Positions 1 through 11,410 of a DNA stretch of 11,410 nt are shown piece by piece. The stretch comes from a virus (lineage: Duplodnaviria; Heunggongvirae; Uroviricota; Caudoviricetes). Position numbers and translations under genes: made by a program. The stretch lies in the IMG/VR virus record IMGVR_UViG_2585427732_000018; one strand, given 5' to 3'. How positions within the stretch are numbered: the first letter of the stretch is position 1; every line of letters starts with the position of its first letter. The notes under the pieces are model-generated. The model made no database searches. It had not been told where the DNA came from and was given only the letters and a program-made list of their open reading frames with translations.

Positions 1-1242
1 ATGGCGAGAAAAACACACCCATTAACCACAGTGCAGATCAAAGCAGCCAGACCAGCGCAAAAGGAGTACACCCTGCAGGACGGCGGAGGGCTTTTTCTCC
101 TGGTCAAACCGTCTGGATCAAAACTCTGGAGATTTTCCTACTACCGACCATCGGACAAAAAAAGAATATTGCTGAGTTTTGGATCGCTTGAAGATGTTTC
201 CCTGGCTGATGCCAGAAAACGCCGTAGCGAGTACAGGACGTTAATCAGTGCCGGAACTGACCCGCAGGACCACGAGAGGCAAAAAAGAGAGACAGAGGCC
301 CGAAGACAAGGGAACACGTTCGAAAATGTGGCGGCGGCATGGTACCAGGTGAAAATCAGCCAGAATCTGGCCCCCAACACGATTAAAGACATCTGGCGTT
401 CGCTGGATAAATATGTATTCCCGTTCATCGGCAACACGCCAATAGATACCCTCACCGCCCGAAGGTTCGTTGAAGTGCTTACACCCATCAAGGAGCGCGG
501 CAACCTGGAAACACTCAAGCGGGTTTTACAGCGCGTTAATGAGGTAATGGATTACGCCGCCAACAGTGGGCTGATTGATGCCAATCCGGCTATGAATGTG
601 CGTAAGGCGTTTCCCTCACCTGTAAAAAAACATATGCCAACAATCCGCCCCGAACAGCTGCCGGAGCTTATGCAGGCTTTATCAGTATCGGCAACAGAAC
701 GGCAGACCAGATTACTGATTGAATGGCAGTTACTGACCGTAACCCGTCCCGCCGAAGCGTCATCAACGCGGTGGGATGAAATCAACCTGGACGCGAAGCA
801 ATGGACGATACCTGCCGGACGCATGAAGATGCGCAGGGATCACGTTATCCCGCTTTCCGGTCAGGCTATGGCGGTGCTGGAGGCCATGAAACCAATCAGC
901 CACCACCGCAATTACGTTTTCCCAAGTCTGAAAGACCCACAGCAGCCGATGAACAGCCAGACAGCTAACGCAGCATTGCGGCGTATGGGATTCGCTGGCG
1001 TGCTGGTGTCTCATGGATTACGCGCCATATTCAGCACAGCAGCGAACGAGGAAGGATTCGAGCCGGACGTAATAGAGGCGGCACTTGCCCACGTCGACAC
1101 CAACGAAGTTAGACGGGCATACAACCGGAGCAACTACATAGAAAAACGCATCGTGCTGATGCGCTGGTGGGGCGAATTTGTCGAGGCTGCGGCGACGGGC
1201 GTAACCCTCGCCAGTGGTAAAAGGGGTATCCGAGCCGTGTAG
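1..1242 (+). CDS. int: Tyrosine site-specific integrase, P4-like family
   Basis: 413 aa ORF. N-terminus (KEYTLQDGGGLFLLVKPSGSKLWRFSYY...VSLADARKRR) is typical of P4-type integrases; C-terminal catalytic motifs HGLRAIF and YNRSNY (putative catalytic Tyr) are present. Confidence 0.93.
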   Translation: MARKTHPLTTVQIKAARPAQKEYTLQDGGGLFLLVKPSGSKLWRFSYYRPSDKKRILLSFGSLEDVSLADARKRRSEYRTLISAGTDPQDHERQKRETEARRQGNTFENVAAAWYQVKISQNLAPNTIKDIWRSLDKYVFPFIGNTPIDTLTARRFVEVLTPIKERGNLETLKRVLQRVNEVMDYAANSGLIDANPAMNVRKAFPSPVKKHMPTIRPEQLPELMQALSVSATERQTRLLIEWQLLTVTRPAEASSTRWDEINLDAKQWTIPAGRMKMRRDHVIPLSGQAMAVLEAMKPISHHRNYVFPSLKDPQQPMNSQTANAALRRMGFAGVLVSHGLRAIFSTAANEEGFEPDVIEAALAHVDTNEVRRAYNRSNYIEKRIVLMRWWGEFVEAAATGVTLASGKRGIRAV

Positions 1243-1319
1243 CTGTACAGAAAACCAGTAAAAACTACGAAAACCATGTAAAACCGTCGTATAATTGCAT
1301 CAAATTTAACGACAAGGCC

Positions 1320-1571
1320 GTGAAACATGAAACCGTTAAGATGCAAAAAAATATCAGATGCAATTGCGACGGGCTGCAACTGGCCCTGATGGTTCAGCAT
1401 GAATTTTGGTCAACCTACGATCCGGAGGACAGAACGACGGCCCCATCAAAAAAACAGGTAGTAGATTTTCTGGTATCCCGTGGCGCTTCCAGAAATCTGG
1501 CGGTAAGTATTGATAAGGTCGTACGTCCGGCATCTATGAAGATCGGAGGCAGGCCCAAAAAATGGCGGTAA
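1320..1571 (+). CDS. Hypothetical small protein (83 aa from GTG at 1320; alternative ATG at 1341)
   Basis: ORF followed at once by an intrinsic terminator; weak AAGG upstream of the GTG; possible -10 TATAAT at 1290-1295. No recognisable family. Confidence 0.4.
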   Translation: MKHETVKMQKNIRCNCDGLQLALMVQHEFWSTYDPEDRTTAPSKKQVVDFLVSRGASRNLAVSIDKVVRPASMKIGGRPKKWR

Positions 1572-1582
1572 CAATCCTGGAA

Positions 1583-1607
1583 GCGGCAGAAATGCCGCTT
1601 TTTTTAT
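1583..1607 (+). terminator. Rho-independent terminator
   Basis: GCGGCA-GAAA-TGCCGC hairpin followed by TTTTTTTAT, directly after the stop codon at 1569-1571. Confidence 0.7.
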
Positions 1608-1630
1608 AATTCCATTTCAAATCATCAATA

Positions 1631-1661
1631 TAAAAACGGTGTATACCGTTTAAAAACGGTG
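1631..1661. promoter_or_regulatory. Direct repeats TAAAAACGGTG x2 and palindrome ACGGT-GTAT-ACCGT upstream of alpA
   Basis: Repeats at 1631-1641 and 1651-1661 (20 bp phase); palindrome at 1636-1649. Lies in the noncoding leader before alpA. Confidence 0.4.
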
Positions 1662-1737
1662 GGAACTGTTTTTACCCATATCCGATGATTTACCGTATTT
1701 GTCACCGGAATACACCGGATTCACAAGGTAAATCACG

Positions 1738-1944
1738 ATGGAAGCAATCAGAAAAATTATCTTTCGCCAGGAAGTAAAAAAAATTATCCACATCAAGGCA
1801 GACAGCACGCTGCAAAGCATGATCAACGCCGGAGAATTTCCGCAGGGTTTTCGCGTTGGTTTACGCCGTCGCGGATGGTATGAGGATGATGTGTTGGCCT
1901 GGCAGAAAGAACGCGAACAGGAAGCACGCGGAACGGCTGCTTAA
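1738..1944 (+). CDS. alpA: AlpA-family transcriptional regulator / excision activator
   Basis: 68 aa; motif INAGEFPQGFRVGLRRRGWYEDDVLAWQ matches the AlpA-type HTH pattern (AGEFP...W...E...AW); SD AAGGTAA 8 nt upstream. Confidence 0.85.
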   Translation: MEAIRKIIFRQEVKKIIHIKADSTLQSMINAGEFPQGFRVGLRRRGWYEDDVLAWQKEREQEARGTAA

Positions 1945-2092
1945 CGGGTATCACAGATATGACAAACACGAAAAAAGCGGCCCCGATATGGAGCCGCCTT
2001 TCTGAACAATTAACCCGCTGCGCCTTATGTGTATATGATCCCAAACATAAGCACGGGGATGATAGCCGCTATCAGGCTGGTGGGCAATGCAA

Positions 2093-2281
2093 TCAGTCTG
2101 GTTCAGTTCGTTGCCATACCTGCAATGAGCGCTTTTCCCTGTATTCTTTAAGGAATTGCTCAAGGGCAAAAGCACATGGCGCGAATCTTTCTGATTCATG
2201 CTCTATCTTTCTGCGCCGTCTTTTCCGTGCCGGTGATAATGTTTTGGTCAATTCTTTATCGGTCATTGTGTTGTCCTGCAT
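2093..2281 (-). CDS. Hypothetical small basic protein (62 aa)
   Basis: ATG-initiated ORF directly downstream (minus strand) of the RHH regulator gene; contains ARKRRRRK basic patch. No family recognised. Confidence 0.3.
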   Translation of the reverse strand: MQDNTMTDKELTKTLSPARKRRRRKIEHESERFAPCAFALEQFLKEYREKRSLQVWQRTEPD

Positions 2282-2323
2282 AGCAATGCGCCGTAATACC
2301 TTACACCACGGCGCTGATGGTGA

Positions 2324-2629
2324 TTACTCTGGTTCTTTGGTCTTGCGGCGCTGGAGTTCTTCACGTGCGACAGTGACGAGCTGCCCGATCTCCTCGGCGG
2401 CTTTGATTCCGAGTTTTTCCACCTGCGCCAGTGCATCGAGCGAAGAAATCAGGGGGTTTTCTCCGCTTCCTTCTGCCTGGCGGCGGGCGATTTCACCGCG
2501 CATGGCGGTTACTATGAATCCGGCGTTGCTTTCACCGTCCAGTTTTACGGATTCCATGCCTTCAATAACATCATGCGGGATCCGAGCTGTTAGTGATTGT
2601 GATTTTGCGTTTTTTGAACCTGTAGCCAT
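2324..2629 (-). CDS. Ribbon-helix-helix-like DNA-binding protein, candidate island regulator/repressor
   Basis: Start placed at the ATG of MATGSKN because a GAGAGGA SD lies 7 nt upstream (the ORF track extends to a TTG at 2644). N-terminal LTARIPHDVIEGMESV followed by two helices fits an RHH fold. Divergent from the rightward operon. Confidence 0.55.
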   Translation of the reverse strand: MATGSKNAKSQSLTARIPHDVIEGMESVKLDGESNAGFIVTAMRGEIARRQAEGSGENPLISSLDALAQVEKLGIKAAEEIGQLVTVAREELQRRKTKEPE

Positions 2630-2651
2630 CTGTAATCCTCTCAATGAAAGT

Positions 2652-2681
2652 GTAAGACAATATACACATAAAAAGTCTTAC
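2652..2681. promoter_or_regulatory. Palindromic operator candidate GTAAGAC-N16-GTCTTAC between divergent genes
   Basis: Perfect 7 bp inverted repeat (2652-2658 / 2675-2681) located between the RHH gene start and the rightward promoter. Confidence 0.4.
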
Positions 2682-2690
2682 ATAAAAGCA

Positions 2691-2719
2691 TTGACATGTA
2701 AGCCACCTATAAATAAAGT
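2691..2719 (+). promoter_or_regulatory. Putative sigma70 promoter of the rightward (Icd-primase) operon
   Basis: -35 TTGACA (2691-2696), 17 bp spacer, -10 TAAAGT (2714-2719); followed by a structured leader (CCTTG...CAAGG and CCCCG...CGGGG hairpins) before the first Icd-like gene. Confidence 0.45.
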
Positions 2720-2825
2720 TACTTACACCTTGTTAATGCAAGGTGCAGAAACGACGAAACCCCGCACTGTAGGAGCAGTAACGGGGCTTCTAACCACCAA
2801 CGATAGCAAGATTATCGAGGCAGCT

Positions 2826-3029
2826 ATGAGAAATTATACCATACACCCGCAAGGGCGGGACTCGTACAACCTGAATAAATACATCTGGCGTTTTATCGCC
2901 CTGAGCACGGCACAACCGCGCGTGATTACCATTGAGGCCACCAGCGAACAGGAAGCACGCCAGCAATCCCCGGCTGGCTGCGTGATGGTATTCGCTGCCC
3001 GTATTCGCCAGGGGTCACATCATGCGTAA
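2826..3029 (+). CDS. Icd-like (host cell division inhibitor-like) small protein, copy 1
   Basis: 67 aa; motif YIWRFIAL...EATSEQEARQQ...VFAARIRQG characteristic of Icd-like proteins of P4-like elements; GAGG SD upstream. Hidden inside the spurious 356 aa ORF 1959-3029. Confidence 0.65.
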   Translation: MRNYTIHPQGRDSYNLNKYIWRFIALSTAQPRVITIEATSEQEARQQSPAGCVMVFAARIRQGSHHA

Positions 3030-3315
3030 AAACCGCTTGCAAAAAATTATCACGGGGCTGTATGCTTCCCCCGTCGCCCACATGGCGACCGGGTTTAGCA
3101 GCCTGAATACATCTGGCGGACAGCCGCCCACATCCGATAAGCGGTTTTTTTGTGTCCGTAAACCTACCCATACCCGCATTATGGCGGGGCGTAACGGGGG
3201 AGCCTTTGTGCTCGCTGGTTTCCAGATGACCAGTCTGCTAACCCTGTTACGTCTCGCCACCATGTTTAGCAGCGTAGTAGCGAGACTCCTTAAAATTCAT
3301 CTGGGAGCCTTTCAC

Positions 3316-3486
3316 ATGGCTGTATTCGCACGCCCTTATTTTGTCTGGCGCTTTATGCAGTGCCTGACAGACAGTATTGCAATATTCACCGTTACCGCTG
3401 CCACTGAGCGCGAAGCACGTGCACAGCTGCCGCACGCACATCTTATTTTTGTCGCCCGTATTCGCCAGGGGGGGAGTCATGCATAA
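3316..3486 (+). CDS. Icd-like small protein, copy 2 (short form; the track ORF 3022-3486 may be an N-terminal over-extension)
   Basis: 56 aa from the ATG at 3316 with GGGAG SD 8 nt upstream; FVWRFMQ...ATEREARAQL...FVARIRQGG parallels copy 1. The upstream 3022-3315 part of the long ORF looks non-coding (hairpins, repeated motifs). Confidence 0.55.
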   Translation: MAVFARPYFVWRFMQCLTDSIAIFTVTAATEREARAQLPHAHLIFVARIRQGGSHA

Positions 3487-3706
3487 AATACCCTTTGATG
3501 TTCTTGTTCATTCTGAAAACGCATTAATCCGCGCAAAGGAAATGGACGCATTACTACTTAAGTTAATTGATGTGCCGGAAAGTGGCGATGAATCTGATTC
3601 AATGATGTTTTCTGCCGTGCGTACGCTATTAACGCCTGTTATTAATGAATTAAATACAGTGATGGCAATTCACGAGAATAATAAAGCGCAGCACACCGGA
3701 GAATAA
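3479..3706 (+). CDS. Hypothetical protein (75 aa)
   Basis: ATG at 3479 preceded by GGGGGGAG SD; overlaps the stop of the preceding gene by 8 nt (coupled). The track ORF 3377-3706 is an upstream over-extension. No family recognised. Confidence 0.5.
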   Translation: MHKIPFDVLVHSENALIRAKEMDALLLKLIDVPESGDESDSMMFSAVRTLLTPVINELNTVMAIHENNKAQHTGE

Positions 3707-3711
3707 AAAAC

Positions 3712-4011
3712 ATGAAAAATAAAAATTCTGGCGTTACTGCCAGCGGCCCCGCTCGTCCTGAATTTATGAACGGCGATATTTACCGCGATAAATATGGCGG
3801 CATGGTAACGATTAAAGGCGTGGCAGAACGGCGCATCACCTACCGTCGTGAAGGCTACGAATATGATTGCGTGATGCCTGTTTATCAGTTTCGGCGTGAT
3901 TTTTCTCTGGTACAGGCAGCGCCCCGCAGTAAACCAACCAGCAGGGAGAAAGCACGCGCCAATATTCAGGAAATAAAAAAGATGCTTAACGTATTCAGGG
4001 GTAAAAAATGA
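3712..4011 (+). CDS. Hypothetical protein (99 aa), possibly DUF4222-like
   Basis: GGAGAA SD upstream; motif GDIYRDKYGGMVTIKGV...YRREGYEYDCVMPV resembles small proteins found beside primases in P4-like islands (family assignment from memory, unverified). Confidence 0.55.
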   Translation: MKNKNSGVTASGPARPEFMNGDIYRDKYGGMVTIKGVAERRITYRREGYEYDCVMPVYQFRRDFSLVQAAPRSKPTSREKARANIQEIKKMLNVFRGKK

Positions 4012-5756
4012 AACTGGCACCGAACGTAAAAAAACAGCCACGCGGAATAAAACACAAAGACACAGAGGTAATTATTTTCGCGGGTAGTGATGCCTGGTCG
4101 CACGCGAAACAATGGCAGGAGCAGGATGGCCCCGCATCCGGCGATAATGTGCCGCCTGTGTGGCTTGGGCCAAATCAGCTTGCCGAACTTGATGCACTGA
4201 AAATTGTTCCGGATGGGAAAAAGCGCGTAAGGCTGTACCAGGCCGGAGAACTGGATTTGGTGGAGACCAAAAAGATTGGTCAGAAGCTGGCGGCGGCAGA
4301 TATTCAGGACGCAAATTTTTACCCCGAAGGAATGCACGTCCAGAAGTGTGAAAACTGGCGGCGCTATCTGAATGCTGAGCGTGAAAATATTGCCGCAGGG
4401 CTTACCATGCCGGAGCAGAAAAATACGCAACTGGCACAAATGGCAGACAGTGAGCGCGCGCAGCTGCTTGCCGAGCGCTTTGATGGCGTTTGTGTGCATC
4501 CTGAAAGTGAAATCGTTCACGTATGGCGCGGCGGGGTATGGTGTCCGGTCAGCACAATGGAGCTGAGCCGCGAAATGGTGGCGATCTATTCAGAGCACAG
4601 GGCCACTTTCAGCAAGCGCGTAATCAATAACGCCGTGGAAGCGTTAAAAGTTATTGCCGAACCAATGGGCGAGCCGTCCGGCTATTTGCTGCCGTTCGCC
4701 AATGGTGCGCTTGACCTGAAAACGGGGGAATTTTCCCCGCACACGCCGGAGAACTGGATCACCACGCACAACGGCATTGAGTACACGCCACCAGCACCCG
4801 GGGAGAACATCCGCGATAACGCGCCAAACTTTCATAAATGGCTTGAGCACGCAGCCGGAAAAGACCCGAGCAAGATGATGCGTATATGTGCCGCGATGTA
4901 CATGATTATGGCGAACCGGTACGACTGGCAGATGTTTATTGAGGCCACCGGAGACGGCGGGAGCGGTAAAAGTACATTCACACATATAGCCAGCCTTCTG
5001 GCAGGGAAACAGAACACGGTAAGCGCTGAAATGACATCGCTTGATGATGCTGGTGGACGTGCGCAGGTTGTCGGGAGTCGTCTTATCGTCCTGGCTGACC
5101 AGCCGAAATATACAGGCGAAGGAACGGGCATCAAGAAAATCACAGGCGGCGACCCCGTGGAAGTTAACCCGAAATATGAAAAGCGTTTCACGGCGGTAAT
5201 CAGGGCGGTGGTGCTGGCGACCAACAACAACCCGATGATATTCACCGAACGGGCCGGAGGTGTGGCACGTCGTCGCGTGATTTTCCGTTTCGACAATATC
5301 GTCAGTGAGGCCGAAAAAGACAGGGAGCTACCGGAAAAGATCGCGGCTGAAATCCCTGTCATTATCCGCCGATTGCTGGCGAACTTTACCGACCCTGAGA
5401 AGGCACGGGCTTTACTACTGGAACAGCGTGACGGTGATGAAGCTCTGGCAATAAAGCAACAGACGGATCCGGTTATTGAGTTTTGCCAGTTCCTGAATTT
5501 TCTGGAGGAAGCACGCGGCCTGATGATGGGCGGCGGTGGCGATTCAGTGAAGTACACGACCAGAAACAGCCTTTACCGCGTCTATCTGGCGTTTATGGCG
5601 TACGCAGGCAGGAGCAAACCGCTAAACGTAAATGACTTTGGCAAGGCTATGAAGCCAGCCGCGAAAGTTTACGGACATGAATATATTACGCGGAAAGTTA
5701 AGGGAGTAACGCAGACTAACGCAATAACAACAGACGAGTGCGACGCGTTTTTATAA
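4008..5756 (+). CDS. Primase / replication initiator, P4-alpha-type (D5-like P-loop NTPase)
   Basis: 582 aa; Walker A GDGGSGKST and a downstream hydrophobic stretch LIVLADQ; start overlaps the upstream stop (ATGA); iteron origin immediately downstream, as is typical of satellite pri-rep genes. Confidence 0.88.
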   Translation: MKLAPNVKKQPRGIKHKDTEVIIFAGSDAWSHAKQWQEQDGPASGDNVPPVWLGPNQLAELDALKIVPDGKKRVRLYQAGELDLVETKKIGQKLAAADIQDANFYPEGMHVQKCENWRRYLNAERENIAAGLTMPEQKNTQLAQMADSERAQLLAERFDGVCVHPESEIVHVWRGGVWCPVSTMELSREMVAIYSEHRATFSKRVINNAVEALKVIAEPMGEPSGYLLPFANGALDLKTGEFSPHTPENWITTHNGIEYTPPAPGENIRDNAPNFHKWLEHAAGKDPSKMMRICAAMYMIMANRYDWQMFIEATGDGGSGKSTFTHIASLLAGKQNTVSAEMTSLDDAGGRAQVVGSRLIVLADQPKYTGEGTGIKKITGGDPVEVNPKYEKRFTAVIRAVVLATNNNPMIFTERAGGVARRRVIFRFDNIVSEAEKDRELPEKIAAEIPVIIRRLLANFTDPEKARALLLEQRDGDEALAIKQQTDPVIEFCQFLNFLEEARGLMMGGGGDSVKYTTRNSLYRVYLAFMAYAGRSKPLNVNDFGKAMKPAAKVYGHEYITRKVKGVTQTNAITTDECDAFL

Positions 5757-5770
5757 TTTTTTGTAATTGC

Positions 5771-5996
5771 TGTCTACCCTGTCTACCTGAGTAAAGAAAA
5801 ATACATTTAATTCAGTGCATTAAGTTAGGTAGATAGCTTTTTTTTACTGTCTACCCACTATCCACCCTCTCTACCTGATTTTACCTGAATCAGACAGGGA
5901 GGTAGACACGGGGTAGATAGTGGATAAAAGCACTCTACCCCGCTGAAAGCCGCGCCATTACTGGCATGAGGGCCACTAAGGTAGATAAGGTAGACA
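5771..5996. repeat. Iteron cluster, putative replication origin
   Basis: About 10 copies of TGTCTACC / GGTAGA(C/T)A in both orientations (e.g. 5771, 5782, 5827, 5848, 5901, 5912, 5979, 5988) in the AT-rich gap after the primase. Confidence 0.65.
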
Positions 5997-6044
5997 AGGG
6001 GAGGCACAACTCAAAACTTTTTAAACGAGGGGGTAAAAATAAAT

Positions 6045-6323
6045 ATGCACACTTCAGGGAAATTTAATAAATCACTCAAAAAACGCAGAGACAGAACAGA
6101 ACCGAAATATCGCGCGTTAGACATGACAGAGCACGCTTTAAAGGTGGCAATCAGAACGATAGACCGCCACGCGGGGGAAGGATACGCGAAAGCACATCCC
6201 GAACTGATAAGCGCATTCATGACCACGACGGCGGCAAACTTTGCCACGCTGACAGAACGGGAGATTGCCGAAGCGGAACAGGTAACAACCATCAACGTTA
6301 AAACCGGAGAGGTGGAATCATGA
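6045..6323 (+). CDS. Hypothetical protein (92 aa)
   Basis: GAGGGGG upstream at about 11 nt; stop overlaps the ssb start (ATGA), suggesting translational coupling. No family recognised. Confidence 0.5.
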   Translation: MHTSGKFNKSLKKRRDRTEPKYRALDMTEHALKVAIRTIDRHAGEGYAKAHPELISAFMTTTAANFATLTEREIAEAEQVTTINVKTGEVES

Positions 6324-6742
6324 CAGCACAGATAGCCGCTTACGGGCGGCTGGTGGACGACCCGCAGGTAAAACAGACCAGCAAGGGCACACCGATGACG
6401 CTGGCGCGTATGGCGGTCCCCCTTCCGTGCAGCCAGGCAGATGACGGAACGGCGACGATGTGGTTATCCGTCCTGGCATTTGGCAGACAGGCCGAAGCAC
6501 TGGAAAGGCACCGCAAGGGTGAACTCCTGAGCGTGGCGGGTAACATGCAGATCAGCCAGTGGACTGGGCAGAACGGAGAAACGCGGCAGGGCTGGCAGGT
6601 TATCGCAGACAGTGTAATCAGTGCGCGAACGGCGCGACTGGGCGGCAAAAAAGGTCAACAGGGCCAGGCTACTGACGCGCTGAACAGGGCAAAACAACAG
6701 GCGGGGAATGATGATCCGTACGGGGATAACATACCGTTTTAA
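6320..6742 (+). CDS. ssb: Single-stranded DNA-binding protein (SSB-like OB fold)
   Basis: 140 aa; GRLVDDPQV...W..V.AFG..AE.....RKG aligns with the E. coli SSB OB fold; Gly/Gln-rich linker; C-terminal DDPYGDNIPF resembles the SSB acidic tip (DDDIPF). Confidence 0.75.
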   Translation: MTAQIAAYGRLVDDPQVKQTSKGTPMTLARMAVPLPCSQADDGTATMWLSVLAFGRQAEALERHRKGELLSVAGNMQISQWTGQNGETRQGWQVIADSVISARTARLGGKKGQQGQATDALNRAKQQAGNDDPYGDNIPF

Positions 6743-6757
6743 GCGACGAGTGACAGA

Positions 6758-6781
6758 AGCCGGAGCAATCCGGCTTTTTTA
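6758..6781 (+). terminator. Rho-independent terminator after ssb
   Basis: AGCCGGA-GCAA-TCCGGCT hairpin plus TTTTTT. Confidence 0.7.
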
Positions 6782-6835
6782 CGGGTCCTCCTGGCGGGGT
6801 GGGCCTGAACACGGGGCGGGAGGCGCGGAAAAAAG
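6782..6835 (+). other. Degenerate cos-like relic (third copy of the terminator-cos module)
   Basis: CGGGTCCTCCTGG...ACGGGGCGGGAGGCGCGG parallels 9223-9275 (CGGGTCCTTCCTGG...ACGGGGCGGCGACCTCGCGG) but the 12-nt cosN core is disrupted. Confidence 0.5.
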
Positions 6836-6954
6836 CGCATTTTTGTGATTTTATCGTCATCATCATCATGAGCGTAATTTATTGTTTTTAATTGTTTTGA
6901 TGCAAAAAAGATGATGGTTGTGGTTAATTTTCGTTCGACATCTTTGCAGGCAGA

Positions 6955-6997
6955 TAAAAAAGCCCGATAAGGTCAGAGGTGGCTTATCGGGCTTTTG
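6955..6997. terminator. Bidirectional intrinsic terminator-like hairpin
   Basis: 10 bp stem GCCCGATAAG/CTTATCGGGC with 11 nt loop, A-tract on the 5' side and TTTT on the 3' side. Confidence 0.5.
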
Positions 6998-7073
6998 CAT
7001 ATGAGACTTTTTGGTGCACTGACACACATGATCGGGATCATCATTTCATAATTTGCAACACAACTCAATATCA

Positions 7074-7101
7074 TTGCACAAAATGCAATCATGATTATAA
7101 T
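7074..7101 (+). promoter_or_regulatory. Near-consensus sigma70 promoter of the capsid operon
   Basis: -35 TTGCAC (7074-7079), 16 bp spacer, -10 TATAAT (7096-7101). Confidence 0.55.
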
Positions 7102-7106
7102 CAGAG

Positions 7107-7122
7107 CTGGATGAACATCCAG
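7107..7122. promoter_or_regulatory. Palindrome CTGGATG-AA-CATCCAG at the predicted transcription start, operator candidate
   Basis: Perfect 7 bp arms immediately downstream of the -10; T-tract at 7129-7134 is 6 nt from the stem, so it is not a canonical terminator. Confidence 0.4.
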
Positions 7123-7157
7123 TTATGATTTTTTAAGTCGAAGAGGAATTTCTTACT

Positions 7158-7364
7158 ATGGCTGAAGAGAAAAAAGGCGGTGTTTCGGTGTACATAAGCC
7201 CCGAAATCGTGGAGGTGCTCAAGCAGCGCCACAAAAAAAACTATGAGGCTGGCGTGGCGGCTGGACTGGATCCGCTGATGACGCCGGAGCCGTCGATAGG
7301 TTCACTTGTACGCTCTTATTTACTTGCGGCGCTTGGGATGCATAAAAATTATGGGGGTGAATAA
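7158..7364 (+). CDS. Small RHH-like protein (68 aa), first gene of the capsid operon
   Basis: GVSVYISPEIVEVLKQ (beta strand plus helix) and SIGSLVRSYLLAALG (helix) suggest a ribbon-helix-helix fold; stop overlaps the capsid gene start by 1 nt. Confidence 0.5.
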   Translation: MAEEKKGGVSVYISPEIVEVLKQRHKKNYEAGVAAGLDPLMTPEPSIGSLVRSYLLAALGMHKNYGGE

Positions 7365-8419
7365 TGGCAGGCAAAGCAACGGCACTTAACACTAACCAGC
7401 TTTTCATGTACCTGAATCGCGGGGATATTGCGGATTTTAAATTCAGCCCTCTGTTTACCACGCTGTTTTTCCCGAACGTGGCGACATTCAGCACGCAAAA
7501 CATCATGCTGGATACCCTGGACATTGAAGAAGTCACCATGTCGGCGTTTTGTTCGCCTATGGTGGGTAGCCAGGTTCAGCGCGATAAAGGGTACGAAACC
7601 AGCACAATCAAACCTGGCTACATGAAGCCAAAGCACGAAATCGATCCAACGAAAACCATCATGCGCATGGCTGGAGAAGATCCGGCACAGCTTAACGACC
7701 CTACCTATCGCCGTATGCGCCTGATTACTGGCAACATGCGCCGCCAGATAAACGCCATTAAGGCACGCGTGGAATGGCTGGCGGTGAATGCGGTAACGAC
7801 CGGAAAAAACATCATTGAGGGCGAAGGCATAGAACGCTATGAAATCGACTGGAAAATACCGGAAAACTGCATCATAGAGCAGGCCAAGGGTAAAAAATGG
7901 TCCGAGCAGGATAAAGACATGCACGACCCAATCTATGACATCGAGCTTTATGCTGATCAGGCTGGTTGCCCCGCAAACGTCATGATTATGGGCGCTGAGG
8001 TATGGCGCACATTACGCAGCTTTAAAAAATTCCGTGAGCTGTACGATCTTTCCCGTGGTTCAGAATCCGCCGCCGAACTGGCCTGTAAAAACCTGGGCGA
8101 AGTGGTGAGCTTTAAAGGCTATCTTGGTGATCTGGCCCTTATCGTCTATTCCGGCAAATACACTGACAGCGATGGTACCGAAAAATATTTCCTTGAGCCT
8201 GATTTGCTGGTCCTGGGTAACACCAACAATAAAGGGCTGGTGGCCTATGGTGCGATAATGGATCAGGAAGCGGTAAGAACGGGCGCAACACAAAACATGT
8301 TTTACCCGAAAAACTGGATTGAGGACGGCGATCCGGCGATTGAGTACGTGCAGACACACAGTGCACCGCAGCCGGTACCGGCAGATATTCGCAAATTTGT
8401 TACCGTCAAAATTGGTTAA
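7364..8419 (+). CDS. Major capsid protein, phage lambda gpE-like
   Basis: 351 aa; long colinear matches to lambda gpE as I recall it: DFKFSPLF..LFF; SP.V...V.R.......IKPGYMKPKHEIDP; EDP..L.DP.YRR.R; WSEQDK..HDP..DIE.YA; RGSES....A.K.LGE.VSFKG..GD.A.IVYSG.Y; YPKNW...GDPA.E. GGGGGTGA SD upstream. Confidence 0.9.
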   Translation: MAGKATALNTNQLFMYLNRGDIADFKFSPLFTTLFFPNVATFSTQNIMLDTLDIEEVTMSAFCSPMVGSQVQRDKGYETSTIKPGYMKPKHEIDPTKTIMRMAGEDPAQLNDPTYRRMRLITGNMRRQINAIKARVEWLAVNAVTTGKNIIEGEGIERYEIDWKIPENCIIEQAKGKKWSEQDKDMHDPIYDIELYADQAGCPANVMIMGAEVWRTLRSFKKFRELYDLSRGSESAAELACKNLGEVVSFKGYLGDLALIVYSGKYTDSDGTEKYFLEPDLLVLGNTNNKGLVAYGAIMDQEAVRTGATQNMFYPKNWIEDGDPAIEYVQTHSAPQPVPADIRKFVTVKIG

Positions 8420-8431
8420 CGGGGGAATTCT

Positions 8432-8767
8432 ATGGACACTCCATACATTGAGTTATTTGCAGGCAGTCAGCAGGTATCCACGACGTTGGTACATTTTGCC
8501 GCTGATGCTGGCGTTATTCAGGAATTTACCCCGCTGATGCTGGCAGACAATGGCGAGTTTAAGCCGTGGGATGGTCAGGAATCTGGCAAGGCTGTTTATC
8601 TGACCTCGTACCCTGTGGACACGTCAAAGCAGAAATCAGCACAGTGTTACAAGACGGGGATATTCAATATTGCCGCCGTTAACTGGCCTGAGAGCGTCGA
8701 CACCGATGCGAAAAAATGCGCCGCCTTTGCGGGTTCCGGCGTATCCGTTCAGCCGCTGGCCCGATAA
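8432..8767 (+). CDS. Head decoration protein, phage lambda gpD-like
   Basis: 111 aa, about the size of gpD; conserved TPLMLAD...WDG, YKTG.F, WPES.D.DAKK.AAFAGSG motifs; GGGGGAA SD upstream. Confidence 0.8.
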   Translation: MDTPYIELFAGSQQVSTTLVHFAADAGVIQEFTPLMLADNGEFKPWDGQESGKAVYLTSYPVDTSKQKSAQCYKTGIFNIAAVNWPESVDTDAKKCAAFAGSGVSVQPLAR

Positions 8768-8779
8768 GCAGGGGGAACG

Positions 8780-9193
8780 ATGGCAACGAATGAAAGCATC
8801 ATGACGCTACCGCTGGCGAGTAAATTTAAAGCCGAAGCGCGGGCAATGGCTGACAGAGGTTTATCAACCTACGAGGCCGTATATCAACTCAACAAACTGG
8901 AAGAGCAGGACAAGCCGCGCGCTGATGCGATTATGGCGCTTCATGAGCATAAAGACTATCAGCCGCTGTTGCGTGCAATGGCAAACGTGCCTTGTATCGA
9001 TGTTGATACGGCTAAAAACATCCTGAACATGACCATAGAGCAGGAACGCCCGAAGGTTGCACCAGAGCTTACCGCAGCCTTTGAAAACTTTATGGACATG
9101 CACAGCCCACAAACCGTATCAGCTGGCATGGCATACGATGGCAGAAACCCAGGCGATGACGGCGACATCGATCGCATACTGAAAACCATCTGA
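8780..9193 (+). CDS. Hypothetical protein (137 aa), predicted helical, in the capsid operon
   Basis: Same GGGGGAA SD as the two upstream genes; followed by a terminator. Occupies the position that lambda gpFI holds after gpE, but I see no sequence similarity to gpFI. Confidence 0.6.
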   Translation: MATNESIMTLPLASKFKAEARAMADRGLSTYEAVYQLNKLEEQDKPRADAIMALHEHKDYQPLLRAMANVPCIDVDTAKNILNMTIEQERPKVAPELTAAFENFMDMHSPQTVSAGMAYDGRNPGDDGDIDRILKTI

Positions 9194-9198
9194 GACAA

Positions 9199-9221
9199 GG
9201 CCGGAGAAATCCGGCTTTTTT
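9199..9221 (+). terminator. Rho-independent terminator after the capsid operon
   Basis: GCCGGA-GAAA-TCCGGC hairpin plus TTTTTT; near-identical to the terminator at 6758-6781. Confidence 0.7.
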
Positions 9222-9222
9222 G

Positions 9223-9290
9223 CGGGTCCTTCCTGGAATTATGGCCCGTTACGGGGCGGCGACCTCGCGGTTTTTCGCTATTTATGAGCT
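9223..9290 (+). other. cos site (forward copy): cosN cohesive-end sequence GGGCGGCGACCT at 9254-9265 with lambda-like flanks
   Basis: CCCGTTACG-GGGCGGCGACCT-CGCGGTTTTTCGCTATTTATGA matches the phage lambda cos junction as I recall it; similarity to lambda stops about 30 bp to the right of cosN. Confidence 0.8.
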
Positions 9291-9398
9291 TTTTCAGGGG
9301 GGTGGTGGTGGTTTTGTTGTTTGCTCTATCTTTATGAATGAAAAGGGAAAGATGCAAACAATACACCAACCTGAAGCAGTAATTAAGTTGGTGTATTA

Positions 9399-9941
9399 AT
9401 GAAATCGCACCTGATGAACAAAAAAAACATGGCGAAAAGCTGCCGTGTAAGTGCGACAGCGTTCGACAAGTGGGGAGTGACTCCCGTTGAACGTAAAGGC
9501 CGTGAGGCGTTTTACGATGTTGCCAGCGTGATAGACAATAGGGTTAACAATGCAATTAGCCAGCTTACAAACGACAAAGGCGATATTGATGATGATGAAC
9601 TCTTACGAGTCAGGATCAGATTACTGACAGCACAGGCGGAGGCGCAGGAACTTAAAAACGAGCGCGATCGCGGTGACGTGATTGATACTGAGTTTTGCCT
9701 GTACGCGCTTTCAAAGCTGGCGAGTCAGATTTCATCAATCATGGACAGCCTCCCGCTTACTATGCAAAGGAGCTTCCCACAGATTACCCCCGCCATGCTG
9801 GATAGGCTTAAAAGGGAAGTGGTTAAAGCCTGTAATGCCAGTGCCAGAGTTGCCGACAACCTCCCACAGATACTGGCTGATTACTTGAAAGAAACAACCG
9901 GAAACGTACCGGAAAAGTTGCTACAGAAGAAAGGCGAGTAA
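9399..9941 (+). CDS. Terminase small subunit homologue (lambda Nu1-like); candidate packaging-redirection (Rpp-type) protein
   Basis: 180 aa; C-terminal two thirds (LTAQAEAQELKNERDRGDVIDTEFCLYALSKLASQISSIMDSLPLTMQRSFP) closely parallel lambda Nu1; N-terminal wHTH region is much more diverged. Alternative starts at 9414 and 9429; no strong SD for any. Confidence 0.8.
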   Translation: MKSHLMNKKNMAKSCRVSATAFDKWGVTPVERKGREAFYDVASVIDNRVNNAISQLTNDKGDIDDDELLRVRIRLLTAQAEAQELKNERDRGDVIDTEFCLYALSKLASQISSIMDSLPLTMQRSFPQITPAMLDRLKREVVKACNASARVADNLPQILADYLKETTGNVPEKLLQKKGE

Positions 9942-9964
9942 CAGACGCGCAATTATTGAACAAA

Positions 9965-10163
9965 ACTGAGAAACGACATGAAAGCGTCATAAATCGCCAT
10001 TTTAGATGATTACCGTGTCGTTTCTTTTTATTGTGTATCTATTTAAAAACAAATAGTTATGTTCGAGAAGTACCGACATGCTTTTTCCAGAAAAATTTTC
10101 ATAAACAGATAAAAACCGCGAGGTCGCCGCCCCGTAACGGGCCATAATTCCAGGAAGGACCCG
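9965..10163 (-). other. cos site (inverted copy) with lambda-like cosB architecture; cosN core at 10121-10132 (minus strand)
   Basis: 10111-10163 is the exact reverse complement of 9223-9275 (53 bp). Read on the minus strand, the flank continues with ATCTGTTTATGAAAATTTTTCTGG, an R3-like TCGGTACTTCTCGAACATAACT, an AT-rich TTGTTTTTAAATAGATAC and an inverted repeat AGAAACGACA/TGTCGTTTCT (9969-9978 / 10016-10025), resembling lambda R3-I1-R2-R1. Confidence 0.75.
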
Positions 10164-10196
10164 ACGACACCAGACTATCAGAGCGATGGGGGCACA

Positions 10197-10478
10197 ATGA
10201 CAGAAGCCGAAATACTGGGATTAATCCGCCGTGCTGGTGGAATCAGCCAGCAGACTGACGAACAGGCCACGCAGCCGGACAGCGTGACAGCCGAAAATTA
10301 TGCGCGTGTTGTTGCTGAGGTGATGCGCCGTGATGGTATCCAGCTTAATGATGTGGATATGCGCAACATACGGATCCGCGTTCTTGAAATGCTGGCCTAC
10401 CGTCGCCGCGTGCAGACGTACAGGGAAAAAGCAAAAATTACGTACCACTGGAAGAAGCCGGAGCGGTTACGGCGGTAA
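10197..10478 (+). CDS. Hypothetical protein (93 aa)
   Basis: GGGGG SD upstream; lies between the inverted cos and the right-end repeat array. No family recognised. Confidence 0.5.
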   Translation: MTEAEILGLIRRAGGISQQTDEQATQPDSVTAENYARVVAEVMRRDGIQLNDVDMRNIRIRVLEMLAYRRRVQTYREKAKITYHWKKPERLRR

Positions 10479-10647
10479 CTGGTTGATATTTTCGAAATTC
10501 GCCAGCGGCGAACATCGGGGAAACCAGCCTAACCCGTTGATATTTTCGGGAACCTCAAATTGAGGAGGTCGGAAACATAACCCGTCATATTCTGGATGCT
10601 GATAATTACCACGCAGCCCATTAAGGCCTAACCCGTTGATTCTTCCC
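10477..10647 (+). repeat. Four phased direct repeats (TAACCCGTTGATATTTTCG-like) at about 50 bp spacing
   Basis: Copies at about 10477, 10529, 10577 and 10627; also palindromes TTCGCC-AGC-GGCGAA (10495-10509) and GCGCAA-AA-TTGCGC (10700-10713). Confidence 0.6.
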
Positions 10648-11071
10648 AATTTCCACAGACTGCGGAAATTGGCGCGGTAACTTACTGAGATTAAAGCAAA
10701 GCGCAAAATTGCGCTGGCTGGTGGGCATGATGCCGATATGGTGATCCCCATAACGGAAATATCCACCAGCACGGCAACGGCAGAATAGCCACAACACAGA
10801 AAAACCACGAATATGGGGTTTTTGTTATGGCATGGGCATGATGACCGCCCCTGCTCTGAATGGTGGAAATCACCACGCAGATCATCCACCAGCTTCGTTT
10901 TTATAAATTAAACATCCGGGAAAATCCGACCCTGAATTGTGCATTTTTTCAGCAAATCATTTTAGTTATACGTTTGGTTATACGGTTTAAAAGTTGAATC
11001 ATATACATTATTTTAAATCATGAAGTTACACGCTCAATTAAACTACTCTCGTGCCGACCAAAAATCCCAAG

Positions 11072-11100
11072 AAAACCAACCTATTGCGGTTGGTTTTTTT
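11072..11100. terminator. Bidirectional intrinsic terminator, probably for the convergent flanking gene
   Basis: AAAACCAACC-TATTGC-GGTTGGTTTT with a T-tract on the + strand and an A-tract upstream. Confidence 0.55.
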
Positions 11101-11161
11101 ATATCTGCATTTAATTCGATAAACAGACCGCGACACATCACGGCCTGTTTATTTTCTGTTA

Positions 11162-11410
11162 TCAGAACGTCCAGACCACACCCGCCTGAGTTGTGCTGCT
11201 TTCTTCACGGGAGAAACGGCTGTCGATACCAAGCGTTAGCCCCGTCAATGTTTGCTCAAAGCCAGCGCCTGCATCAGTGGTCACGTTGTTGCGGCTGTTA
11301 ATTGCCGAACTCCACATCGCCGTATCGTAATTAACGCCTTTTACGCTACCAAGACGCCCACGCACGGTGTCCAGTTCTGCATCAAATACCAGCGGTTGTG
11401 CTGCCGCCAT
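11162..11410 (-). CDS. 3' end of a flanking gene (partial, continues beyond the window); possibly an outer-membrane beta-barrel protein
   Basis: Open to the window edge; C-terminus ...TTQAGVVWTF ends with an aromatic-x-Phe pattern common in outer-membrane beta-barrels. Weak inference only. Confidence 0.35.
   Translation of the reverse strand: MAAAQPLVFDAELDTVRGRLGSVKGVNYDTAMWSSAINSRNNVTTDAGAGFEQTLTGLTLGIDSRFSREESSTTQAGVVWTF

Follow-up and report, generated by a model that had tools for sequence, protein, structure and literature searches.

Two Icd-like genes in a phage satellite

The locus lies within an 11,410-nt stretch of DNA that was analysed as a whole (hereafter the window) and is built around two Icd-like genes on the plus strand, on which the elements given with coordinates below lie unless stated otherwise. 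The first, icd1 (2826–3029), encodes a 67-aa protein, and the second, icd2 (3316–3486), a 56-aa protein that aligns with the product of icd from P1 and P7. The two are 43% identical. An earlier note on this DNA had placed both open reading frames correctly, and both match NCBIfam model NF033153 (phage_ICD_like, "host cell division inhibitor Icd-like protein"; cut-off 25 bits), with scores of 69.8 bits for icd1 and 53.7 bits for icd2; the same model gives 52.6 bits for P1 Icd and 73.9 bits for the C-terminal part of P4 ORF137 (Kil). NCBIfam was needed for these assignments, as the Pfam search returned no family for icd1, icd2 or the 154-aa ORF that overlaps icd2. By analogy, icd2 would correspond to icd in P1 and kil in P4, and would be directly controlled by the C4 RNA described below.

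Downstream of icd2, the ATG of a 75-aa ORF (3479–3706) lies inside the icd2 stop (ATGCATAA), and genes for a DUF4222 protein (3712–4011; Pfam) and a P4-family primase (4008–5756; TIGR01613) follow. These translationally linked genes (3479–5756) form the presumed cargo of C4 control. The island also contains genes for a tyrosine integrase, an AlpA-like protein, SSB, a lambda-type capsid E, a decoration protein D and Nu1; together with the P4-type primase, this gene organisation is that of a Gram-negative PICI or PICI-like element, a phage satellite in E. coli.

A C4-family RNA gene between icd1 and icd2

The only above-threshold match in an Rfam scan of the whole window is to the C4 antisense RNA family (RF01695) at 3177–3264 on the plus strand, within the spacer between the two Icd-like genes. 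The match covers the full model (positions 1–87 of 87) with 72.7 bits (E = 5.4e-13; gathering threshold 45 bits), and the same model gives 74.9 bits for P4 CI, 68.8 bits for P1 C4 and 69.6 bits for P7 C4. In P1, C4 is a stable RNA of ~77 nt that is processed by RNase P out of a longer transcript and represses downstream expression. By alignment to this 77-nt RNA, the mature C4 of the window is predicted to span ~79 nt (~3183–3261); the ends are placed by reference to those of mature P1 C4 in the alignment and to the 3′-terminal ...GCCACC, which is conserved.

The RNA folds into a long closing stem around two hairpins, the shape of the RF01695 family, with a minimum free energy of −47 kcal/mol (z = −5.96 versus shuffles). 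Covariance analysis across homologues, which the earlier note had proposed as a check, revealed compensatory double changes in 15 of the 27 consensus pairs in an alignment of 20 relatives. A covariance model made in this analysis from a 20-sequence C4 alignment (R1) scores the window C4 at 95.8 bits. Two segments of the RNA are left available for pairing with targets: b′ (CCAGATGA; CCAGAUGA in the RNA) at 3222–3229, in the loop of hairpin 2, and a′ (CTGCTAA; CUGCUAA in the RNA) at 3235–3241, in a single-stranded stretch.

Promoters and an IsrK-like leader

Upstream of C4, the spacer contains a candidate internal promoter at 3037–3066 (TTGCAA at 3037–3042, an 18-nt spacer and TATGCT at 3061–3066). 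With 8 of 12 consensus matches it falls under the promoter-scan threshold, and the call is made solely from homology and position: it aligns with the annotated P1 promoter P1c4 (P51b) and, on this sequence evidence, is the positional homologue both of that promoter and of the constitutive promoter inside P4 eta.

The promoter is followed by an IsrK/c4-a1b1-like leader (3073–3151), assigned from RF03163, RF01394 and collinearity with P1. It comprises a perfect first hairpin, GTCGCC-CACAT-GGCGAC (3073–3089), a second hairpin (3089–3105) and a terminator-like hairpin with a run of seven T residues (3122–3151). In a relaxed-threshold search, the c4-a1b1 model (RF03163) gave 45.5 bits (E = 3.9e-10) on the leader, just below its threshold of 46.7 (1.2 bits short), and the isrK model (RF01394) gave 36.8 bits (E = 3.4e-6) over 3073–3151, with the terminator hairpin and U-run included, and did not reach its threshold of 50. 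Despite these missed thresholds, the sequence homology of the leader to the a1/b1 leader of P1 and P7 is clear, because it is collinear with the annotated leader of those phages. The terminator-like stem is weak, with six pairs and a 13-nt loop, and was missed by the terminator scan; no site for a Rho-dependent terminator could be located from the sequence.

Further upstream, the promoter scan detected a strong sigma-70-like promoter at 2691–2719 (TTGACA, a 17-nt spacer and TAAAGT; 10 of 12 consensus matches). This promoter probably serves icd1 and would be the positional analogue of the upstream late promoter of P4 (PMC10111431). It is bracketed by four TGTAAG half-sites arranged as inverted pairs (inverted repeats I1–I3, 2651–2731, without strand), and all three TGTAAGNC matches of the window fall in this same interval; we regard the TGTAAG repeats as a putative operator. 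No match to the P1 C1 operator consensus was found in the window with up to three mismatches allowed. A divergent YlcI/YnfO-family gene adjoins the upstream promoter.

Target sites for C4

The sites complementary to C4 occur twice, once in the leader and once between C4 and icd2. The first pair consists of a1 (TTAGCAG, 3095–3101), in the loop of the second leader hairpin, and b1 (CATCTGG, 3110–3116); the second consists of a2 (TTAGCAG, 3266–3272), downstream of C4, and b2 (TCATCTGG, 3297–3304), which overlaps the icd2 Shine-Dalgarno sequence (GGGAG, 3303–3307). Exact 7-nt complementarity links a′ to both a1 and a2, and b′ pairs with both b1 and b2. The b′:b2 duplex comprises 13 bp including G–U pairs, has an energy of −22 kcal/mol and covers the icd2 Shine-Dalgarno sequence; none of 500 shuffles equalled it. 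The cores of a2 and b2 recur exactly in a1 and b1, so the leader can also pair with C4, with duplex energies of −14.2 kcal/mol for a′:a1 and −10.6 kcal/mol for b′:b1. A further helix, between the 3′ arm of C4 and the segment after a2, was considered and rejected: the window has a 7-nt match (GTCTCGC/GCGAGAC), and the best duplex in relatives is only 3–5 nt.

These assignments give meaning to one of the two short repeats that the earlier note had pointed out in the spacer. The two copies of GTTTAGCAGC (3093–3102 and 3264–3273) are the a1 and a2 sites, complementary to the a′ sequence CUGCUAA, and their recurrence is far above chance (0.02 matches expected; none of 200 shuffles reaches two). The proposal that the region encodes a P4-CI-like regulatory RNA acting through short complementary repeats is therefore upheld, P4 CI belonging to the same Rfam family as the window C4. 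The repeat of GCCCACAT (3076–3083 and 3126–3133) also exists and is within chance (0.52 expected; 16 of 200 shuffles reach two); its two copies lie in the loops of different hairpins, which vary independently among relatives. As this repeat is not beyond chance and has no complement in C4, it was rejected as a functional pair and is probably coincidental. The repeat coordinates in the earlier note were off by 1–10 nt: the perfect hairpin had been put at 3074–3090, the GTTTAGCAGC copies at 3103 and 3263, and the second GCCCACAT copy at 3131–3138. The b sites (b1 CATCTGG and b2 TCATCTGG, both pairing with b′ CCAGATGA), which form the second target pair and the more specific one, had escaped that note.

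The duplication of the target sites in the leader raises an alternative, in which activation of the IsrK type is the main function: the leader RNA (3073–3151) would target, in trans, either the long transcript or C4, a1 and b1 would absorb a′ and b′, and icd2 and the operon would be switched on. The alignment of the isrK model through the terminator hairpin and U-run is in keeping with this reading, as is the ability of the leader to compete for C4 through its copies of the a2 and b2 cores at the duplex energies given above. There is precedent as well, in the activation by IsrK in Gifsy-1 (PMC4825925) and in the need for IsrK-like elements in P4-like prophages of S. Typhi (PMC3632133). However, the isrK score lies under threshold, the terminator stem is weak and escaped the scan, the role of a1/b1 in the P1 record is labelled only "putative", and IsrK activation supplements C4 repression rather than replacing it. 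We consider it possible, though doubtful, that such activation is the main function, and we favor repression by C4.

Covariation of b1, b′ and b2 among relatives

Relatives were drawn from three sources: E. coli, with 231 chromosomal and 608 plasmid places (loci L125–L133); IMG/VR, by a C4-core pattern (loci L134–L253); and a pattern scan of genome contigs, which contributed few true matches. The pattern of the last scan, GCTGGTTTCN{5,11}CCAGTCTG, was too loose: of its 120 loci, most were matched by chance and came from unrelated phyla, and only five (L043, L102, L041, L089 and L075) were real C4 loci.

Over 58 unique configurations, a′ is either CTGCTAA, the P7 allele, or CTGTCAA, the P1 allele, and the b′ loop has at least 20 different sequences over the 58 unique relatives. 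In all 58, a perfect Watson–Crick complement of b′, 7–9 nt long, is present both at b1 in the leader and at b2 just before the Shine-Dalgarno sequence. When b′ loops were instead compared with the flanks of loci that carry a different loop, the best match averaged 4.3 nt at b1 and 3.9 nt at b2, and matches of at least 7 nt occurred in only 4 of 3086 and 4 of 3084 comparisons of mismatched locus pairs, the events at b1 and b2 being coupled. A three-way covariation of this kind can only be maintained by selection on RNA–RNA pairing. The combination in the window, b′ CCAGATGA with a′ CTGCTAA, is shared by E. coli IAI39 (L001) and loci L242 and L245, and the same b′ is found with the other a′ allele in L150. 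The island is present in E. coli strains IAI39 and AR_0013, with identities of 98.4% for IAI39 and 100% over 3030–3330 for AR_0013.

Relatives also differ in the number of modules. According to Rfam and R1, they hold one, two or three C4 genes at a spacing of ~478 nt, with an Icd-like gene after each, and in three of them (L130, L131 and L133) the icd1 homologue has in front of it an isrK and a C4 of its own, the latter of different specificity. The window contains exactly one C4, as do IAI39, L129 and L132, and searches for a C4 remnant upstream of icd1 returned only noise (Rfam to E = 1, and R1 with filters off over 2600–3100). By this sequence comparison, the tandem Icd-like genes are stacked immunity modules, the first of which is without its RNA in the window.

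These comparisons bear on a different explanation, that recombination with a P1-like phage-plasmid left the module behind as an inactive relic. Some relatives have indeed decayed, with pseudogenes in L131 and L133, and the window lacks the C4 copy that is found before icd1 in several relatives. Nevertheless, all elements of the window are intact and mutually complementary, the same b′ specificity recurs in independent contigs (L001, L242 and L245, and L150 with the other a′ allele), and three-way covariation across at least 20 b alleles needs selection on pairing. A relic is thus highly improbable, and we continue with the module as a selected one.

An open frame through the RNA gene

The start codon of the 154-aa eta-like ORF (3022–3486) lies within ATGCGTAA, where it shares bases with the icd1 stop, 294 nt upstream of the icd2 ATG. 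From there the ORF crosses the internal promoter, leader and C4 and enters icd2 in the same frame. RefSeq/PGAP calls the equivalent ORF in IAI39 and other genomes a 154-aa Icd-like protein, and RefSeq has no RNA gene here. The match to the Icd family is confined to residues 107–149.

Codon-level comparison used 15 tandem-type relatives, five of the 20 unique sequences having been set aside. In codons 1–98, substitutions are distributed 32/40/30 over the three codon positions, with a synonymous-only share of 0.12, versus 23/24/41 and 0.39 in icd2. There is no synonymous bias in codons 1–98 and no coding-type conservation of the frame 3022–3315; the earlier note had named such conservation as something that would tell against its RNA proposal. 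Judged by these substitutions, the first 98 codons are free of protein-type constraint and only the last 56 codons evolve like protein.

The frame is nonetheless kept open. All 26 unique satellite-type sequences have the icd frame open for at least 294 nt upstream, whereas the other two frames average 5.2 and 6.9 stops in the satellite relatives; within the 294 nt that precede icd2, 48 distinct stop-codon events were counted, none of them in the icd frame and 22 and 26 in the other two, counts that are drawn from related sequences, so that the events are not fully independent. Satellite relatives with a tandem gene have an ATG exactly 294 nt upstream, which shares bases with the stop codon of the Icd-like gene before it (ATGnnTAA), and islands without a tandem gene have an ATG 348 or 354 nt upstream of icd. 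One lineage (L133, L159, L204 and L238) combines two compensating indels, −1 in the terminator loop and +1 in the b′ loop, and ~37 codons between them are read in a different frame; even so, no stop interrupts the ORF, which rejoins the icd frame. Among P1-like phage-plasmids, in contrast, 36 of 42 sequences close the frame 33–42 nt upstream of icd. In P4, an ATG that overlaps the ORF88 stop lies 402 nt upstream of the 65-aa kil and in frame with it, across the isrK-like leader and CI; by sequence, the 154-aa ORF has the nested-gene architecture of P4 eta/kil. The earlier note had the coordinates of this ORF right and took it to be non-coding, a view that holds for codons 1–98 as regards protein constraint and does not account for a frame that is maintained in all satellite relatives.

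The alternative that the ORF encodes a genuine long Icd-like protein, with the RNA resemblance secondary to coding, could draw on the PGAP annotation and on the openness of the frame in all satellite relatives. However, the Icd family match is limited to the C-terminal residues given above, the substitution pattern of the first 98 codons differs from that of icd2, and one lineage replaces ~37 codons by those of another frame, while the covariance-model score and the covariation of base pairs and targets point to constraint at the RNA level. A functional long protein therefore seems improbable, and we prefer to see an RNA gene crossed by a frame whose peptide would be of little consequence.

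Comparison with known immunity systems

The P1/P7 immI module, comprising the c4 antisense RNA, icd and ant, was reportedly described by Citron and Schuster in 1990. In BLAST comparisons with phage records, window positions 3085–3274 are 75–79% identical in nucleotide sequence to the c4 region of P1, P7 and P1-like phage-plasmids, and by alignment 3030–3490 is collinear feature by feature with the annotated P1 record (NC_005856), in the order promoter P1c4, 5′ hairpin (with a compensated stem), a1, b1, terminator-like hairpin with T-run, c4, a2, b2 and icd. By nucleotide sequence the nearest relative is thus c4–icd of P1/P7, not P4. The shared features include the order of elements, the position of b2 over the icd ribosome-binding site and the Rfam families, and the a allele is that of P7. 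The b specificity differs, being CATCTGG/CCAGATG here, TTAGTG/CACTAA in P1 and ATTGTG/CACAAT in P7. Further differences are that the window is without a C1 operator, that the satellite replication operon (75-aa ORF, DUF4222 and P4-type primase) stands downstream in place of the antirepressor gene ant of P1, that the frame through leader and C4 is open here and mostly closed in P1-like sequences, and that an extra Icd-like gene lies upstream. The mechanism of P1 C4 is taken from PMC8198154 and the P1 annotation.

P4 resembles the window in other respects. Its CI belongs to RF01695, its Kil is Icd-like, its constitutive promoter, leader and RNA gene all lie inside a long ORF that shares the kil frame and whose ATG overlaps the upstream stop, and a P4-type primase operon follows. 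The transcript from the constitutive promoter in eta is soon terminated through the interactions of CI with seqA, and its processing yields CI; Kil represents a shortened form of Eta, and full-length Eta is translated only from the upstream late promoter, coupled to the upstream gene, this translation preventing termination (PMC10111431). The sequence is far more diverged, however, without a blastn match to P4; the coupled upstream gene is Icd-like here and an alpA/vis homologue in P4; P4 is described with one complementary sequence (seqB), in contrast to the two-part a/b design here; and the island has genes for a lambda-type capsid E, decoration protein D and Nu1 instead of sid/psu/delta.

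A third parallel is isrK-orf45-anrP of Salmonella Gifsy-1, in which a C4-like RNA (STnc1160), overlapped by a translated ORF, comes after an IsrK-like leader that has a terminator. The nucleotide sequence of orf45 is conserved and its amino-acid sequence is not, and it is translationally coupled to the next gene; IsrK is a short RNA that activates translation in trans (orf45-anrP) rather than repressing it (PMC4825925). Gifsy-1 differs in having an antirepressor downstream, and the window leader reaches only 36.8 bits on the isrK model. The "IsrK-C4 immunity system" has been named for P4, P1, P7, N15 and lambdoid prophages, and P4-like prophages of S. Typhi have been reported to need IsrK-like elements (PMC3632133).

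Among Gram-negative PICIs, several, including helper-embedded ones, match the Rfam C4 and isrK profiles, and the described layout is like that of the island, with an integrase and an AlpA-like protein, a regulatory zone that contains immunity RNAs, primase/SSB, and late genes, capsid E among them (PMC10111431). Target specificity, the tandem arrangement of modules and the conservation of the frame are not analysed in that study and were worked out here.

A model for control of the satellite operon

Taken together, the spacer between the Icd-like genes is, with high probability, an RNA immunity module of the P1 C4/P4 CI type that carries its own target sites and resides in a phage satellite. 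Family membership, RNA structure, target complementarity and covariation, and conservation of the open frame were established here; the processing and stability of C4, the translational block, termination and the override by translation are inferred by analogy.

In the model, transcription from the internal promoter (~3037–3066) would start at ~3073, and the transcript would open with the IsrK/c4-a1b1-like leader, bearing a1 and b1, and then meet the weak terminator-like hairpin. Read-through transcripts would contain C4, and the stable ~79-nt RNA (3183–3261) would be cut out of them. Its b′ (CCAGAUGA) and a′ (CUGCUAA) would then pair with b2 and a2 on the same kind of transcript and, because b2 overlaps the icd2 Shine-Dalgarno sequence, icd2 is proposed to be left untranslated. 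The untranslated mRNA would end early through Rho-type polarity, so that the 75-aa ORF, DUF4222 and primase genes stay off and the island remains quiescent.

Transcripts from the upstream promoter (2691–2719) would behave differently. Because the icd1 stop overlaps the ATG of the 154-aa ORF, ribosomes arriving from icd1 are proposed to enter this eta-like ORF and to run through the leader, C4 and a2/b2, and such passage should make these transcripts insensitive to C4. The leader may in addition give an IsrK-like short RNA that competes for C4, as a rival to or complement of repression; given IsrK activation in Gifsy-1 (PMC4825925), the net logic could by analogy be more complex than C4 repression.

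Implications for satellite immunity

The module is an ordinary member of a family that is already in Rfam and has already been noted in E. coli phage satellites; a known mechanism is extended to one more element, and current understanding is unchanged. For annotation, the RefSeq call of a 154-aa Icd-like protein masks a C4-family RNA and its targets.

A broader reading, which we put forward tentatively and with somewhat less than even confidence, is that Gram-negative PICI-type satellites, usually described without a dedicated repressor, set the quiescence of their replication operon by a combinatorial RNA code (two a and at least 20 b alleles, in one to three stacked orthogonal modules). The peptide-indifferent open frame would then be a helper-triggered override, in which ribosome transit from the induced upstream promoter erases immunity, and the window would be a variant whose first module is without RNA, icd1 serving purely as the coupling entry point.

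The module places an E. coli satellite within IsrK-C4 immunity as found in P1, P7, P4 and some lambdoid prophages, and the survey of relatives, which takes in many b specificities that covary with their targets, modules in tandem and a frame that stays open across the RNA gene, leads to predictions on heteroimmunity between satellites and on the bypass of immunity upon helper induction.

Genetic context of the C4 locus

The window (1–11410) has the appearance of an entire satellite of the Gram-negative PICI type, encoding an integrase (1–1242), an AlpA-like protein (1738–1944), a P4-family primase (4008–5756), an SSB (6320–6742), a lambda-type major capsid protein E (7364–8419), a head decoration protein D (8432–8767) and a Nu1-like small terminase (9399–9941). 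Upstream of icd1, four TGTAAG half-sites (2651–2731) are arranged as inverted pairs around the −35 and −10 elements of the icd1 upstream promoter, and the interval they span holds every TGTAAGNC match in the window. These half-sites are a possible operator for some regulator, perhaps the divergently encoded YlcI/YnfO-family protein (2324–2644, minus strand). The 109-nt icd1 5′ leader (folding energy −29.3 kcal/mol, z −2.6) contains a GC-rich hairpin (CCCCGCACUGUAGGAGCAGUAACGGGG, 2756–2790), in which a covariance-model search detected no C4 remnant.

Complementarity to b′ (CCAGATG), one of the exposed segments of the window's C4 antisense RNA, extends into coding sequence: CATCTGG lies inside icd1 (2882–2888), in the codons of the conserved IWRF motif, and TTCATCTGGCG in the icd of P1/P7 is likewise complementary. 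These matches may reflect a coincidence of conserved codons or an extra target.

The open frame through the RNA gene and its annotation

The eta-like ORF (154 aa in the window), which runs through the leader and C4 in frame with icd2, changes frame locally in four relatives (L133, 1493–1790; L159; L204; L238). There the terminator loop of the leader carries a −1 indel and the b′ loop, 12 nt long instead of 11, a +1 indel, which together put approximately 37 codons into a different frame; even so, no stop interrupts the ORF, and it afterwards returns to the icd frame. RefSeq/PGAP records the ORF across C4 as an "Icd-like protein" of 154–175 aa, in E. coli IAI39 (NC_011750, 6298–6762) and in all E. 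coli chromosomal matches, and annotates neither C4 nor the leader RNA isrK at any of them. The part of c4 that was matched in P1-like plasmids is without any annotated feature. The absence of C4/isrK annotation is a systematic gap.

In P4, residues 22–85 of the old "cI gene product" ORF (8168–8584, minus strand) match the Pfam family Phage_ASH (PF10554). As this match largely overlaps the CI RNA gene (8420–8507, ~residues 26–55), part of the family appears to rest on translation across an RNA gene. The 154-aa ORF of the window gave no match to Phage_ASH.

Distribution and tandem arrangement of C4 modules

Full-length C4 family matches (51–80 bits) were also found beyond Enterobacterales, in four genome contigs (L041 and L075, both Acinetobacter, L089 and L102); in L102 the a/b target logic is the same, but the ORF lying downstream does not resemble icd. 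Two complete C4 genes, ~478 nt apart, occur in tandem in L130 (1044–1710), L131 (1163–1710), L133 (1072–1735), L154, L156, L169, L180, L181, L204, L227, L238 and L247, and three, at the same spacing, in L194 (1090–1876). The window has the RNA of the second module only. Each tandem copy in the relatives has its own Icd-like gene and a different a′/b′ specificity, and together they look like stacked orthogonal immunity modules.
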